Shown one piece after another: positions 4,033-53,871 of a DNA stretch of 64,000 nucleotides. Each line of letters starts with the position of its first letter. The stretch's first letter is position 1. Below the pieces are notes generated by a model, which did no database searches, was not told the origin of the DNA, and was given only the letters and a program-made list of their open reading frames with translations. The position numbers were made by a program, and so were the translations under genes. The stretch is taken from NCBI RefSeq assembly GCF_056746865.1, contig NZ_CM163382.1. One strand, written 5' to 3'.

Positions 4033-6294
4033 ATGACAATATTGAATCACACCCTCGGTTTCCCTCGCGTTGGCCTGCGTCGCGAGCTGAAAAAAGCGCA
4101 AGAGAGTTATTGGGCGGGGAACTCCACGCGTGAAGAACTGCTGGCAGTAGGGCGTGAACTGCGTGCCCGTCACTGGGATCAACAAAAGCAGGCGGGTATC
4201 GACCTGCTGCCGGTGGGCGATTTTGCCTGGTACGATCATGTACTGACCACCAGTCTGCTGCTGGGTAATGTTCCGCCACGTCATCAGAACAAAGATGGTT
4301 CGGTAGATATCGACACCCTGTTCCGTATTGGTCGTGGACGTGCGCCGACTGGCGAACCTGCGGCGGCAGCGGAAATGACCAAATGGTTTAACACCAACTA
4401 TCACTACATGGTGCCGGAGTTCGTTAAAGGCCAGCAGTTCAAACTGACCTGGACGCAGCTGCTGGAGGAAGTGGACGAGGCGCAGGCGCTGGGCCACAAG
4501 GTGAAACCTGTGCTGCTGGGGCCGGTTACCTACCTATGGCTTGGGAAAGTGAAAGGTGAACAGTTTGACCGCCTGAGCCTGCTAAACGACATTCTGCCGG
4601 TTTATCAGCAAGTACTGGCAGAACTGGCAAAACGCGGCATTGAGTGGGTACAGATCGACGAACCCGCACTGGTACTGGAACTACCGCAGGCGTGGCTGGA
4701 CGCATACAAACCCGCTTACGACGCGCTTCAGGGCCAGGTGAAACTGCTGCTGACTACCTATTTTGAAGGCGTAACGCCAAATCTCGACACGATTACTGCG
4801 CTGCCTGTTCAGGGGCTGCATGTGGACCTTGTACATGGTAAAGATGACGTTGCTGAACTGCACAAGCGTCTGCCTTCAGACTGGCTACTGTCTGCGGGTC
4901 TTATCAATGGTCGTAACGTCTGGCGCGCCGATCTTACCGAGAAATATGCGCAAATTAAGGACATTGTCGGCAAACGTGATTTGTGGGTGGCATCTTCCTG
5001 CTCGTTGCTGCACAGCCCCATCGACCTGAGCGTGGAAACGCGTCTTGATGCAGAAGTGAAAAGCTGGTTTGCCTTCGCCCTACAAAAATGCCATGAACTG
5101 TCACTGCTGCGCGATGCGCTGAACAGTGGTGATACGGCAGCTCTGGCAGAGTGGAGCGCCCCGATTCAGGCGCGTCGTCACTCAACCCGCGTACATAATC
5201 CGGCAGTAGAAAAGCGTCTGGCGGCGATCACCGCTCAGGACAGTCAGCGTGCGAATGTCTATGAAGTGCGTGCTGAAGCCCAGCGTGCGCGTTTTAAACT
5301 CCCAGCATGGCCGACCACCACGATTGGTTCTTTCCCGCAAACTACGGAAATTCGTACCCTGCGTCTGGATTTCAAAAAGGGTAATCTCGACGCTAACAAC
5401 TACCGCACGGGCATTGCGGAACATATCAAGCAGGCCATTGTTGAGCAGGAACGTTTGGGACTGGATGTGCTGGTACATGGCGAGGCTGAGCGTAATGACA
5501 TGGTGGAATACTTTGGCGAGCACCTCGACGGTTTTGTCTTTACGCAAAACGGTTGGGTACAGAGCTACGGTTCCCGCTGCGTGAAGCCACCGATTGTTAT
5601 TGGTGACGTTAGCCGCCCGGCACCGATTACCGTGGAGTGGGCAAAATATGCGCAATCCCTGACTGATAAACCGGTGAAAGGGATGTTGACCGGCCCAGTG
5701 ACCATTCTCTGCTGGTCGTTCCCGCGTGAAGATGTCAGCCGTGAAACCATCGCCAAACAAATTGCGCTGGCGCTGCGTGATGAAGTCGCGGACCTGGAAG
5801 CCGCTGGAATTGGCATCATTCAGATTGATGAACCGGCGCTGCGCGAAGGTTTACCGCTGCGTCGTAGCGACTGGGATGCATATCTCCAGTGGGGCGTCGA
5901 GGCTTTCCGTATCAACGCCGCCGTGGCGAAAGATGACACACAAATCCACACTCACATGTGTTACTGCGAGTTCAACGACATCATGGATTCGATTGCGGCG
6001 CTGGACGCAGACGTCATCACCATCGAAACCTCGCGTTCCGACATGGAGTTGCTGGAGTCGTTTGAAGAGTTTGATTATCCAAATGAAATCGGTCCTGGCG
6101 TCTATGACATTCACTCGCCAAACGTACCGAGCGTAGAATGGATTGAAGCCTTGCTGAAGAAAGCGGCAAAACGCATTCCGGCAGAGCGCCTGTGGGTCAA
6201 CCCGGACTGTGGCCTGAAAACGCGCGGCTGGCCAGAAACCCGCGCGGCACTGGCGAACATGGTGCAGGCGGCGCAGAATTTGCGTCGGGGGTAA
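4033..6294 (+). CDS. metE: Cobalamin-independent methionine synthase
   Basis: 753-aa ORF starting [29 protein letters not shown]; matches E. coli MetE. Confidence 0.97.
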
Positions 6295-10602: not shown

Positions 10603-12845
<2,243 letters not shown>

Positions 12846-26318: not shown

Positions 26319-27860
<1,542 letters not shown>

Positions 27861-27928
27861 CCTTAAAGAATCGTTCTTTGAAGTGCTCACACAGATTGTC
27901 TGATGAAAATGAGCAGTAAAACCTCTAC

Positions 27929-28005
<77 letters not shown>

Positions 28006-28047
28006 AATTTGCACCGCAAATTTGAAGAGGTTTTAACTACATGTTAT

Positions 28048-28123
28048 GGGGCTATAGCTCAGCTGGGAGAGCGCCTGCTTTGCACGCAGGAGGTCTGCGG
28101 TTCGATCCCGCATAGCTCCACCA
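28048..28123 (+). tRNA. alaT: tRNA-Ala (TGC anticodon)
   Basis: GGGGCTATAGCTCAGCTGGGAGAGC...CTTTGCA...GCTCCACCA in the 16S-23S spacer. Confidence 0.95.
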
Positions 28124-28306
28124 TCTCTGTAGTGATTAAATAAAAAATACTTCAGAGTGTACCTGCAAAGGTTCACTGCGAAGTTTTGCTCTTTAAAAAT
28201 CTGGATCAAGCTGAAAATTGAAACACTGAACAACGAAAGTTGTTCGTGAGTCTCTCAAATTTTCGCAACACGATGATGAATCGAAAGAAACATCTTCGGG
28301 TTGTGA

Positions 28307-31208
<2,902 letters not shown>

Positions 31209-31300
31209 ACAACGCCGAAGCTGTTTTGGCGGATTGAGAGAAGATTTTCAGCCTGATACAGATTAAATCAGAACGCAGAAGCGGTCTGATAAACAGAATT

Positions 31301-31420
31301 TGCCTGGCGGCCTTAGCGCGGTGGTCCCACCTGACCCCATGCCGAACTCAGAAGTGAAACGCCGTAGCGCCGATGGTAGTGTGGGGTCTCCCCATGCGAG
31401 AGTAGGGAACTGCCAGGCAT
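31301..31420 (+). rRNA. rrfA: 5S ribosomal RNA
   Basis: TGCCTGGCGGCC...GGGAACTGCCAGGCAT, 120 nt. Confidence 0.97.
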
Positions 31421-40367: not shown

Positions 40368-40514
40368 GATTCGCCTGAACATGCCCTTTTTTCGTAAGTA
40401 AGCAACATAAGCTGTCACGTTTTGTGATGGCTATTAGAAATTCCTATGCAACAACTGAAAAAAAATTACAAAAAGTGCTTTCTGAACTGAACAAAAAAGA
40501 GTAAAGTTAGTCGC

Positions 40515-40623
40515 GTAGGGTACAGAGGTAAGATGTTCTATCTTTCAGACCTTTTACTTCACGTAATCGGATTTGGCTGAATATTTTAGCCGCCCCAGTC
40601 AGTAATGACTGGGGCGTTTTTTA
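40515..40623 (+). ncRNA. spf: Spot 42 small regulatory RNA
   Basis: GTAGGGTACAGAGGTAAGATGTTCTATCTTTCAGACCTTTTACTTCACGTAATCGGATTTGGCTG... ending in terminator GCCCCAGTCAGTAATGACTGGGGCGTTTTTT; recognised by sequence. Confidence 0.92.
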
Positions 40624-41651: not shown

Positions 41652-41896
41652 ATAGAGCGAGGACGCTAACAGGAACAATGACTCAGGATGAGGGTCAGGA
41701 GCGCCAGGAGGCGAAGACAGAGGATTGTCAGGAAGACAAACGTCCGGAGACGTAATTAAACGGAAATGGAATCAACACGGATTGTTCCGGCTAATGGAAA
41801 AACAGGGTGTGTTGGCGGCCTGCAAGGATTGTAAGACCCGTTAAGGGTTATGAGTCAGGAAAAAAGGCGACAGAGTAATCTGTCGCCTTTTTTCTT
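41652..41896 (+). ncRNA. csrC: CsrC small RNA (CsrA-sequestering)
   Basis: ATAGAGCGAGGACGCTAACAGGAACAATGACTCAGGATGAGGGTCAGGAGCGCCAGGAGG...; dense AGGA/CAGGA motifs; intrinsic terminator GGCGACAGAGTAATCTGTCGCCTTTTTT at 3' end. Confidence 0.88.
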
Positions 41897-41962
41897 TGCT
41901 TGCTTTCTGTTAGATTCCGCCGCAAATCTATACTGAATAAAACGGCTAAAAGACGAACCATT

Positions 41963-45866: not shown

Positions 45867-46916
45867 TTATTTCCTGATAGGCAGGTAAACCGAGAACTCG
45901 GTATGACCTGGCCAACTGGTAAATTCAATTTTGCCTGAATGCTGATCAATCAAATTACGGGCGATGGATAAGCCAAGCCCGGTGCCACCTTCGCGGCCGC
46001 TGACCATCGGGTAAAACAGCGTATCCTGCAAATGAGGCGGAATACCTGGCCCGTTATCTTCCACATCAATTCGCGCCGCCAGCCGATAACGCTCGCCGTG
46101 TAAGGTCAGTTGGAAAGCTGTGCGGGTACGCAGAATGATTTCACCACCCTCTGGCCCCAGCGCCTGTAGCGCATTGCGCACAATATTCAGGAGCACTTGC
46201 TCAATTTGATCCGGGTCGTGCGCCAGTTCCGGCAGGCTGGGGTCGTAATCACGAATCAACCGCACGTTGTCCGGCAGTTCCATCGACACCAGCGTCACCA
46301 CGCGTTCAGCCACTTTATGAATACTTTCGGTAACGCGCGTACCGGGCAGTTGCGGTCCCAACAGACGGTCGACCAGATTTCGCAGCCGGTCCGCCTGTTC
46401 GATAATAACTTTGGTATATTCGAGTAGTGACGGGTCAGGTAATGCTTTGCTGAGCAGCTGCGCCGCGCCACGTAAACCGCCAAGCGGATTTTTAATCTCA
46501 TGTGCCAGGCCGCGCACTAAATCACGGGCAGCAACCTGCTGGGCGTGCTGTAGCTGTTCCTGACTTAAGCGGCGCTGGTTATCCATCGGTGCCATCTCCA
46601 GCAGGATCATGCCGTCCGGCATACGCTGGGCCGTCACAGAAAGGATATGCGAGCGCCCGTCGATGACCAGCGTCACTTCGTTATCGGTAAAACCTTGCCC
46701 CGCCTCCAGACTTTCTTGCATCAGCTCGATATTTAATGAGAAGTAGCTCAACAGTTCCGGTAACGGTGTACCAAACAATTTGCGGGAGCTTTGGGCGAGC
46801 AGTTGTTGCGCGGCGGGGTTGGCGTAATGGATCGCCAGGTTGTCATCGATTAACAAAATACTGTTAATCAGCGAGTTGAGGATCTGCCCAGCATCGGGCT
46901 GCGTGCCTGTTGCCAT
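45867..46916 (-). CDS. glnL: Nitrogen regulation sensor histidine kinase NtrB
   Basis: 349-aa ORF with H-box ([12 protein letters not shown]) matching NtrB. Confidence 0.95.
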
Positions 46917-46937
46917 AAAGCAGTCTCCTGAACAGGT

Positions 46938-46954
46938 TGCACCATTTTAGTGCA
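46938..46954. promoter_or_regulatory. NtrC binding site overlapping the glnL promoter
   Basis: Palindrome TGCACCATTTTAGTGCA (NtrC consensus TGCACC-N5-GGTGCA) 22 bp upstream of the glnL start. Confidence 0.7.
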
Positions 46955-47049
46955 TTATAGCTTTTTACGGATAAAAAGCGCGAAGCATCAGAGAATTGAC
47001 GGAGAAAAAAGCCCATGCAGAGATGGGCTGAAAGTTTCCACGGCAACTA

Positions 47050-47075
47050 AATCCCGGCGTTGTTGCGCCGGGTAG
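47050..47075 (-). terminator. glnA terminator hairpin
   Basis: Inverted repeat cccggcg-ttgttg-cgccggg just downstream of the glnA stop on the minus strand. Confidence 0.65.
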
Positions 47076-47089
47076 TACAACTTCAACTA

Positions 47090-48499
47090 TTAGACGCTGT
47101 AGTACAGCTCAAACTCTACCGGATGCGGAGTCATACGCACGCGGTCATCTTCTTCGCGACGCAGAGCGATGTACGCATCGATCGCTTCATCAGTGAACAC
47201 GCCACCGGCTTTCAGGAACTCGCGGTCCAGATCCAGTTCGTTCAGTGCTTCTTCCAGAGAGCCTGCAACTTGTGGGATCTCTTTCGCTTCTTCTGGCGGC
47301 AGGTCATACAGGTTTTTGTCCATGGCTTCGCCCGGATGGATCTTGTTCTTGATACCATCAAGACCGGCCATCAGCAGGGCAGCAAAGCACAGGTACGGGT
47401 TAGCCGCCGGATCCGGGAAACGTACTTCGATACGACGTGCTTTCGGAGAAGAAACCACCGGAATACGGATAGACGCAGAACGGTTGCGTGCAGAGTAAGC
47501 CAGCATTACCGGTGCTTCGTAGCCCGGGACCAGACGCTTATAAGAGTTGGTGGTCGGGTTTGCCAGGGCGTTAATCGCTTTAGCGTGTTTGATTACGCCG
47601 CCAATGTAGTACAGCGCCTGCTCAGACAGACCTGCGTATTTGTCGCCTGCGAACAGGTTAACGCCGTTTTTAGACAGAGACATGTGGCAGTGCATACCGG
47701 AGCCGTTATCACCGAACATCGGTTTTGGCATAAAGGTCGCGGTTTTACCGAAGCGGTGCGCTACGTTGTGCACAACATATTTGTAGATCTGAATTTCGTC
47801 AGCTTTTTTGGTCATGGTATTGAAGCGGGTAGCCACTTCGTTCTGACCAGCAGTCGCTACTTCGTGGTGATGGGCTTCAACCACCAGACCCATCTGTTCC
47901 ATCACCAGACACATTTCAGAACGAATATCCTGAGCAGAGTCTACCGGCGGAACCGGGAAGTAACCGCCTTTCACTGCCGGACGGTGACCTTTGTTACCAC
48001 CTTCGTATTGGGTGGAGGAGTTCCATGCGCCTTCGATATCGTCGATAGCAACGTGGGAACCGGAGATAGAAGATCCGAAACGGATGTCATCGAACAGGAA
48101 GAATTCAGGTTCTGGCCCGAACAGTACGGTGTCGGCAATGCCAGTGGAACGCAGGTAATCTTCGGCGCGCTTCGCAATAGAGCGCGGGTCACGGTCATAG
48201 CCTTGCAGGGTGCCAGGTTCAAGGATGTCGCAACGGATAATCAGGGTAGAATCGGCGAAGAACGGGTCAATCACTGCGGTGGACGCGTCTGGCATCAGCA
48301 CCATGTCGGATTCGTTAATGCCTTTCCAGCCGCCAATCGAGGAGCCGTCAAACATTTTGCCTTCTTCGAAGAATTCAGCATTCACCTGATGAGCAGGGAT
48401 AGTGACGTGCTGTTCTTTACCTTTGGTATCGGTGAAGCGCAAATCAACAAACTTCACTTCGTGCTCGTTCAGCATCGTCAGTACGTGTTCAGCGGACAT
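47090..48499 (-). CDS. glnA: Glutamine synthetase
   Basis: 469-aa [38 protein letters not shown]... matching GlnA. Confidence 0.98.
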
Positions 48500-48582: not shown

Positions 48583-48720
48583 AGCGAAATCTGTGCCAAC
48601 TTTTAAATTGCCCCTAAAAGGCGTTATCATGCTTAACATCGTGCAAAAGGGCTGCACCATGATATGAATGTTGCACCAATATAGTGCTTCAATGGAAACA
48701 TTAAGCACCATATTGGTGCA
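48583..48720 (-). promoter_or_regulatory. glnAp2 sigma54 promoter (TTGGCACAGATTTCGCT at 48583-48599, minus strand) with upstream NtrC enhancer sites (48672-48687 and 48705-48720)
   Basis: -24 GG / -12 GC element on the glnA strand; palindromes TGCACCAATATAGTGC and GCACCATATTGGTGCA further upstream. Confidence 0.8.
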
Positions 48721-48871
48721 ATGACCTTTGGATAACCCTTTTTATGCTCCGTGAAAGCGATCACAAAGGGACTCTGCAATACTTGTTTGCGGAGGATGTT
48801 TGTGATCCTGTTTTGTAGTGCGATTAATCCGTGTACAATAACGCGCTATTTCTAATGCCTGAGGCAAAGTT

Positions 48872-51629: not shown

Positions 51630-53871
<2,242 letters not shown>

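Follow-up and report, generated by a model that had tools for sequence, protein, structure and literature searches.

The 85-nt glnA 3'UTR of Escherichia coli as an O157-type GlnZ/EsrF small RNA: corrected coordinates, anatomy and conservation

Results

The window analysed in this study is a stretch of 64,000 nucleotides (NCBI RefSeq assembly GCF_056746865.1, contig NZ_CM163382.1) that belongs to E. coli: the 451 bp spanning the locus described here match 5425 of 5426 complete E. coli genomes, and strain 118UI is 100% identical to the window across the 451 bp around the locus. The parental gene of the RNA considered below is glnA, which encodes glutamine synthetase (469 aa) and occupies 47090-48499 on the minus strand. 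Its 3' end, which an earlier note on this DNA had correctly put on the minus strand before a hairpin, reads ...TAC AGC GTC TAA, with the stop codon TAA at 47092-47090. The sequence downstream of glnA is UAGUUGAAGUUGUACUA-CCCGGCG-CAACAA-CGCCGGG-AUUUAG-UUGCCGUGGAAA-CUUUC-AGCCCAU-CUCUGC-AUGGGCU-UUUUU, after which come the promoter region of glnL and, still on the minus strand, its ATG at 46916. Measured from the first base past the stop codon through the terminator's final U, the glnA 3'UTR is 85 nt long (47089-47005, minus strand), and an RNA from this region sits between the stop codon of glnA and glnL's ATG, which is the placement of a GlnZ RNA.

Upstream of glnA, pattern matching detected the sigma-54 element of glnAp2, TGGCACAGATTTCGCT (TGGCAC-N5-TCGCT), at 48583-48598 (minus strand), with NtrC sites further upstream at 48672-48688 and 48704-48720; a sigma-54 element with two upstream NtrC sites is the classical glnAp2 arrangement. 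To judge from the sequence, the cis elements for NtrC- and sigma-54-dependent transcription of glnA are intact, and GlnZ may accumulate in the host under nitrogen limitation. On the other side, the glnL promoter (46938-46959, minus strand) lies outside the sRNA and consists of the -10 element TATAAT (46959-46954) and the palindrome TGCACTAAAATGGTGCA (46954-46938), which have one T in common. The NtrC-type palindrome that the earlier note had seen on this promoter is thus present, and the arrangement is identical in K-12, O111-type, and O157 strains.

Two hairpins were recognised within the 3'UTR by sequence, terminator scan, and fold. The first, hairpin 1 (47053-47072, minus strand), has a perfect 7-bp GC stem, CCCGGCG/CAACAA/CGCCGGG, and had been taken for the glnA terminator in the earlier note; the hairpin exists, but it is not where the transcript terminates, since its tail is AUUUAGUU without a proper U tract and the 3' end of the O157 RNA lies at the second hairpin. 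Under a loose scan both hairpins are terminator-like, hairpin 1 barely passing, and only the second (47029-47005, minus strand) has a canonical uninterrupted U tract. The latter, AGCCCAU-CUCUGC-AUGGGCU followed by U6, is the Rho-independent terminator, as also indicated by the 3' end of the O157 RNA. It is the conserved terminator with a U6 tail that glnA mRNA and GlnZ have in common, and is expected to form the Hfq-binding 3' end. Hairpin 1, in turn, is an internal 5' stem-loop of the sRNA and does not end the transcript.

The target-pairing region of the RNA is UUGCCGUGGAAA, which occurs once in the window, at 47046-47035 on the minus strand, and is an exact match to the published GlnZ seed (Miyakoshi et al. 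2022, PMC9731577). A second published interaction region, the flhB 5'UTR pairing region of Jia et al., is matched by CGCCGGGAUUUAGUUGCC at 47043-47060 (minus strand) with its core motif GGGAUUUAG. The minimum free energy of the 85-mer is -28.3 kcal/mol versus a shuffled mean of -20.9 (z = -2.27), and hairpin 1 and the terminator hairpin are present in both the minimum free energy and the centroid structures. According to the ensemble base-pair probabilities, the seed core CCGUGGAAA is largely unpaired, and UAGUUG on its 5' side partly pairs with GUACUA near the 5' end of the RNA, lengthening hairpin 1. In the predicted fold, the GGG of the flhB motif lies within the 3' arm of hairpin 1. Two open reading frames in this region, one of 60 aa at 46864-47046 (minus strand) with a TTG start within the seed and one of 41 aa at 46950-47075 (plus strand), were considered spurious; both cross the terminator and the glnL start and have no support.

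Comparison with characterised strains indicated which RNA this is. E. coli O157:H7 strain Z563 agrees with the window at 100% of the 121 aligned bases (47110-46990), the entire 3'UTR among them; across the 451 bp, an O157:H7 strain and the window are 99.1% identical, with the mismatches outside the 121-nt stretch. In O157, 5' and 3' RACE defined EsrF, an Hfq-dependent RNA, as exactly 85 nt, with its 5' end at the T adjoining the glnA stop codon and its 3' end at the Rho-independent terminator (Jia et al. 2021, mBio, PMC8092317), and these mapped ends correspond to 47089-47005 in the window. The 3'UTR types of E. coli have been given as 197 nt in K-12, 85 nt in O157, and 230 nt in O111 (Miyakoshi et al. 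2022, eLife, PMC9731577), and the O157 form has been named Class I GlnZ and equated with EsrF (Walling et al. 2022, bioRxiv 10.1101/2022.04.01.486790). Because the window contains the exact published seed together with a 3'UTR 100% identical to that of O157:H7, from which the RNA has been validated experimentally, a GlnZ-type sRNA is encoded at the locus. The proposal of the earlier note that the glnA 3'UTR gives rise to a GlnZ-type sRNA is thereby borne out. Based on the sequence, the identity to O157:H7, and the RACE data on the O157 RNA, 47089-47005 on the minus strand is very probably the O157-type, or Class I, GlnZ sRNA that was earlier published as EsrF. GlnZ/EsrF at this position is a real feature, and an already known one.

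The size and the ends differ from those in the earlier note, which had drawn an RNA of about 200 nt over 47040-47240 ending at the hairpin at 47053-47072. This hairpin does pass the loose terminator scan, and GlnZ of K-12 is indeed about 194-200 nt (Miyakoshi et al. 2022, PMC9731577; Walling et al. 2022); however, the K-12 length stems from a REP insertion that is absent in the window, and the figure of about 200 nt applies only to the variant with that insertion, whereas the RNA here is 85 nt. Furthermore, about 75% of the interval (151 nt, 47090-47240) consists of glnA codons including the stop, and the rest takes in just the first 50 nt of the 3'UTR, splitting the seed and leaving the terminator outside. 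A transcript that stopped at hairpin 1, with its tail AUUUAGUU, would exclude the seed altogether, and RACE on the identical RNA placed its 3' end at the second hairpin (Jia et al. 2021, PMC8092317). We therefore regard the 200-nt geometry as extremely improbable. The earlier note had also held that the lack of a discrete RNA of about 200 nt would speak against GlnZ, a rule that would wrongly reject a true GlnZ.

At gathering thresholds, no Rfam 15 family matched at the locus, and nothing is annotated between glnA and glnL in the RefSeq records inspected. The best match in a permissive search was RF02766, Ysr49 (Yersinia sRNA 49), at 47005-47109 (E about 3e-5), with 34.1 bits versus a gathering score of 95 and with confident alignment only over the seed and terminator; as a family assignment of the window RNA, this sub-threshold match was rejected. 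Permissive matches to anti-hemB, suhB, Trp_leader, and toxic sRNA align to the terminator alone and were dismissed as sub-threshold noise. Three Yersinia species, one Serratia, and one Enterobacter gave no Ysr49 match at its gathering score, and in a permissive search the model matched directly downstream of glnA in Yersinia nurmii with 43.9 bits, below the gathering score of 95. Since the model matches the seed and terminator of the present locus as well as a Y. nurmii site downstream of glnA, Ysr49 is probably the Yersinia homologue of GlnZ. Neither Miyakoshi et al. 2022 nor Walling et al. 2022 mention Yersinia or Ysr49, and glnA goes unmentioned in the one relevant paper to name Ysr49.

A scan of species-representative genomes with the partial pattern GCCGTGGAAA-N0-1-TTT-N1-3-GCCCA yielded at least 120 loci. 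Among the 120 matches listed, 93 have the C-terminus of GlnA encoded directly upstream, and in these 93 the seed and terminator motif starts 15-232 nt past the glnA stop codon. The glnA-linked motif was found, among the matches listed, in genera including Citrobacter, Enterobacter, Kluyvera, Pantoea, Erwinia, Serratia, Yersinia, Rahnella, Dickeya, Brenneria, Lonsdalea, Edwardsiella, and others. The other 27 of the 120 are mostly in unrelated taxa, which fits the approximately 50 chance matches estimated for the whole collection.

Positional conservation was examined in the 91 glnA-linked loci of other species with enough flanking sequence among the matches listed. The seed UUGCCGUGGAAA is invariant in all of these, and so is the UU just before GCCG (91/91), which the pattern did not fix; the G preceding that UU is present in 88. 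Outside the pattern, conservation also extends to a U-rich run that lies further upstream, to the terminator's 3' arm, and to the U6 tract. The terminator stem and U tract are conserved across Enterobacterales in these matches, and one compensatory change (C-G to U-A) was seen in Yersinia artesiana, in a stem that is otherwise almost invariant and whose 5' arm was fixed by the search pattern. The length of the UTR ranges from 55 to 272 nt over the 91 loci, and its variable part is hypervariable and made up of unrelated sequence, including, in at least six species, what we take to be ERIC elements on the basis of the ERIC1R and ERIC2 primer sequences. Among the matches listed, hairpin 1 is carried only by O157- and O111-type E. 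coli UTRs and, as a similar hairpin in the same place, by five Enterobacter-complex species. An invariant single-stranded 12-mer within a UTR that drifts freely looks like a trans-acting seed. Our result on seed conservation independently reproduces the conclusion of Walling et al. 2022 (bioRxiv 10.1101/2022.04.01.486790).

The conservation bears on whether the 3'UTR could be merely a cis element by which glnA mRNA is terminated and stabilised and the read-through into glnLG is set, having no trans role in this strain. The terminator is located 50 bp upstream of the glnL promoter and its deletion slightly lowers GlnA in K-12, yet swaps between the 3'UTR types leave the levels of GlnA and NtrC unchanged (Miyakoshi et al. 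2022, PMC9731577). A cis role would also leave unexplained a 12-nt single-stranded block that is unrelated to termination and nevertheless invariant in 91 species among the matches listed, in UTRs of such different lengths, and the identical RNA represses its targets in trans, as supported by compensatory mutations (Walling et al. 2022). A role in cis only is thus very improbable.

Complementarity to known GlnZ targets was assessed with RNAduplex, using nt 38-60 of the window RNA against the sdhB-sucA, glnH-glnP, and pdhR-aceE spacers from the K-12 record. The seed is predicted to pair with all three leaders at the published sites: with sucA at -48 to -27 from the start codon (-20.4 kcal/mol, an energy reached by 2.0% of 1000 mononucleotide shuffles), with glnP at -22 to -11 (-18.4 kcal/mol, 3.8% of 1000 shuffles), and with aceE at -105 to -91 (-20.8 kcal/mol, 0.2% of 1000 shuffles). 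The energies for sucA and glnP are just moderately better than those of the shuffled controls. The glnP site is immediately upstream of the Shine-Dalgarno sequence, in agreement with the published site, and the predicted aceE duplex has C-99 paired to the G of UUG equivalent to G12 of K-12 GlnZ, a pair that was verified in K-12 by the compensatory mutations G12C/C-99G (Miyakoshi et al. 2022, PMC9731577). In O157:H7 strain PV15-279, a carrier of the short GlnZ, all three target windows are 100% identical, and across E. coli their identity is at least 95%, and mostly at least 99%, in 5419-5425 of the 5426 genomes. Experiments in K-12 showed that EsrF itself represses glnP, sucA, and aceE, and for glnP compensatory mutants were used (Walling et al. 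2022, bioRxiv 10.1101/2022.04.01.486790).

A scan for the RNase E consensus RN|WUU gave three hits, located in the glnA coding end, after hairpin 1, and in the spacer between seed and terminator. At the first, AG|UUU at 47111-47115 (minus strand), a putative cut between 47114 and 47113 would generate a 109-nt precursor. Directly 5' of the seed, the motif GGAUU/GAUUU at 47051-47055 (minus strand) would give a 5' end at 47052 or 47051 and a product of 47-48 nt. The GA|UUUAGUUGCC junction of the window matches the GU|UUUAGUUGCC junction of the K-12 3'UTR, which appears to mark the 5' end of K-12 GlnZ. For the short variant, we infer the RNase E cleavage positions from these motifs, which are sensibly placed.

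The hits of the 451-bp locus in E. coli genomes form three length classes, and alignment with K-12 and a long-type strain revealed a common backbone with large insertions. When type-specific queries were searched against the 5426 complete E. coli genomes at a coverage of at least 80%, the 60-nt junction specific to the short type was found in 2857 genomes, the K-12-specific segment in 1571, and the O111-type insertion in 993, a total of 5421 versus the 5425 genomes that match the 451-bp locus. Thus, with 2857 versus 1571 genomes, the short GlnZ is the majority allele of E. coli and the K-12 form of about 200 nt is a minority one.

Discussion

In this study, we found that the 3'UTR of glnA at 47089-47005 has the anatomy of a GlnZ RNA, and its identity to the characterised O157 RNA, the invariance of its seed, and its complementarity to targets are established for this locus. 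The outcome for the window is a correction to how a published sRNA is annotated rather than a discovery, but exact coordinates and anatomy are gained for the commonest GlnZ variant of E. coli, which is found in 53% of complete genomes. GlnZ lowers SucA, AceE, and GlnP upon induction of glutamine synthetase, and because it couples nitrogen status to carbon flux in this way, its correct annotation matters for metabolic and regulatory models.

The biogenesis of the O157-type RNA is disputed in the literature, with RNase E processing under low nitrogen on one side and an independent promoter under high ammonium on the other. In K-12, deletion of ntrC or of the glnA promoter abolishes GlnZ, and a PglnZ-lacZ fusion shows hardly any activity; with pBAD-glnA, no GlnZ is made without arabinose or, at 42 °C, in an RNase E ts strain (GlnZ literature). 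Release by RNase E is required for sucA repression in K-12, where an RNase E site lies upstream of the stop codon and where work has been done with a GlnZ+30 precursor construct, and the approximately 50-nt GlnZ2 of Salmonella is also made by RNase E; direct demonstrations of processing concern the K-12 and Salmonella glnA mRNAs only (GlnZ literature). For O157, 'processed species' have been described on northern blots (Miyakoshi et al. 2022, PMC9731577).

According to the EsrF model (Jia et al. 2021, PMC8092317), on the other hand, the 85-nt RNA arises as a primary transcript, from a promoter of its own within the coding end of glnA; NtrC represses it and high ammonium induces it, and its main job is to activate flhB (flagella, motility, virulence), for which it pairs through GGGAUUUAG and relieves Rho termination. 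The 5' RACE end at the T past the stop codon in an identical sequence, the TEX resistance of the RNA, its unchanged level in a glnA-promoter deletion, and flhB gel shifts that depend on GGGAUUUAG were all reported in that study, and this motif and the 18-nt interaction region are present in the window at 47060-47043. However, two independent studies from other laboratories found the O157 RNA to be induced by nitrogen limitation, not by high nitrogen (Miyakoshi et al. 2022, PMC9731577; Walling et al. 2022), and the former explicitly call their own result inconsistent with Jia et al. The failure of pBAD-glnA to make GlnZ without arabinose is likewise difficult to reconcile with an internal promoter. 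We found no sigma-70-like promoter on either strand between 46800 and 47300, albeit with a strict scan that misses the known, weak glnL promoter too and therefore weighs little; visual inspection showed poor spacing of the best hexamers upstream of 47089. In addition, the predicted fold buries the flhB motif's GGG within hairpin 1. Because the last 200 nt of glnA yield no consensus-like sigma-70 promoter and the GGG is placed within hairpin 1, we rank the processing model of GlnZ first and consider the EsrF model as a whole unlikely, although flhB is possible as an additional target.

In the preferred processing model, NtrC and sigma-54 would drive glnA from glnAp2 under nitrogen limitation, and most of the transcripts would end at the Rho-independent terminator at 47029-47005. 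RNase E, aided by Hfq, would then release the 3'UTR as the 85-nt RNA, and a form of about 47 nt would probably also be made by a cut just 5' of the seed. With Hfq bound to the terminator U tail, the single-stranded seed UUGCCGUGGAAA may pair with the leader of sucA and with the glnH-glnP and pdhR-aceE spacers, and repress 2-oxoglutarate dehydrogenase, glutamine uptake, and pyruvate dehydrogenase, which would bring carbon flux into line with the nitrogen supply. Expression, Hfq dependence, and target repression are carried over here, by analogy, from the literature on the identical O157 RNA, and GlnZ at 47089-47005 is almost certainly functional.

It is tempting to speculate that hairpin 1 acts as a lineage-specific switch, such that the 85-nt form exposes or occludes GGGAUUUAG and serves extra targets (e.g., flhB and motility), whereas a cut at GA|UUU leaves a 47-nt core for sucA, glnP, and aceE only. 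We think such a switch quite unlikely. If true, it would reconcile the conflicting EsrF and GlnZ reports as the properties of two isoforms.

Compared with the known members, the RNA of the window is indistinguishable from the O157-type GlnZ/EsrF, which has the identical 85-nt 3'UTR, the same position after glnA, and the same seed, terminator, and internal hairpin; the only difference is in the host strain, and none is in the sequence. K-12 GlnZ (Class III, 194-197 nt) shares with it the seed, the terminator, the parental gene, the targets sucA, glnP, and aceE, and the UUUAGUUGCC junction before the seed. Unlike the window RNA, however, it has no hairpin 1, its seed is only 9 nt past the stop codon, and between its seed and terminator it carries a long REP stem-loop as an insertion; the window lacks the 112-nt K-12-specific segment and has the seed adjoining the terminator in the alignment, and the RNA described here is not of the K-12 type. 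The O111-type GlnZ (230-nt 3'UTR) has the O157-type backbone with hairpin 1, seed, and terminator, but it differs by a 145-nt insertion between hairpin 1 and the seed, which is absent in the window, and by a 1-nt deletion past the seed (GGAAAUUUC).

Outside E. coli, GlnZ1 and GlnZ2 of Salmonella (Class II, 185 nt and about 50 nt) have the seed directly upstream of the terminator, as in the window, and the RNase E-released GlnZ2 parallels the form of 47-48 nt predicted here. In contrast to the window RNA, Salmonella GlnZ has a long unrelated leader from the stop codon to the seed and an extra G beside the seed, where the window has U, with aceE regulation lost and deoD gained. Ysr49 resembles GlnZ in that the 3' 40 positions of its model are the GlnZ seed and terminator, whereas the 5' two-thirds of the model are Yersinia-specific and not shared with the window.

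Results and Discussion

Intergenic repeats appear to have landed repeatedly in the glnA 3'UTR, as ERIC elements at six loci (L009 of Citrobacter werkmanii and five others) and as the REP insertion in K-12. The GlnZ seed is intact at these loci, the repeats always lying upstream or downstream of it. The 145-nt insertion that defines O111-type GlnZ (positions 548-692 of L002, the glnA 3'UTR of an O111-type E. coli) is a small dispersed intergenic repeat rather than unique sequence, since other strains carry an approximately 86% identical copy between nfi and hemE (L129 1501-1632) and matches at 80-90% identity were found in 286 genomes.

The glnA 3' end was missing at this locus in only one of 5426 genomes, that of E. 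coli AMSHJX01 from a giant panda, where, in place of glnA, there are fragments of ybhQ and clsB, and glnL is frameshifted. Frameshifts are numerous, which suggests poor assembly rather than biology. Plasmid-labelled records accounted for two of the 5425 glnA-glnL matches in the E. coli genome search, probably through mislabelling of the replicon or misassembly.

Two mechanical ORFs run across GlnZ, one of 60 aa (46864-47046, minus strand), which has a TTG start within the seed and reads on past the terminator into glnL in a different frame, and one of 41 aa (46950-47075, plus strand). Support was found for neither, and both were considered spurious. Between glnA and typA (start 48872, plus strand), Rfam gave an ES222 sRNA match of 133 bits (48683-48790, plus strand), which lies opposite to the glnA strand and overlaps the sites at which NtrC binds in the glnA promoter (48672-48720). 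Other Rfam matches in the window at gathering score are Erse sRNA (10957-11208), an rrn operon with tRNAs and StyR-44 (26319-31418), Spot 42 (40505-40623), CsrC (41652-41905), and isrC (53054-53176, minus strand), and their order is as expected near glnA on the E. coli chromosome.

Rfam has no GlnZ family. The Rfam model search returned a sub-threshold match to RF02766 (Ysr49, Yersinia sRNA 49) at 47005-47109 (minus strand), and another directly 3' of glnA in Yersinia nurmii (L058 3117-3267, minus strand). Ysr49 is named in neither GlnZ paper (Miyakoshi et al. 2022; Walling et al. 2022). Given that the GlnZ seed and terminator correspond to the 3' 40 positions of its model, Ysr49 is probably the GlnZ homologue of Yersinia.
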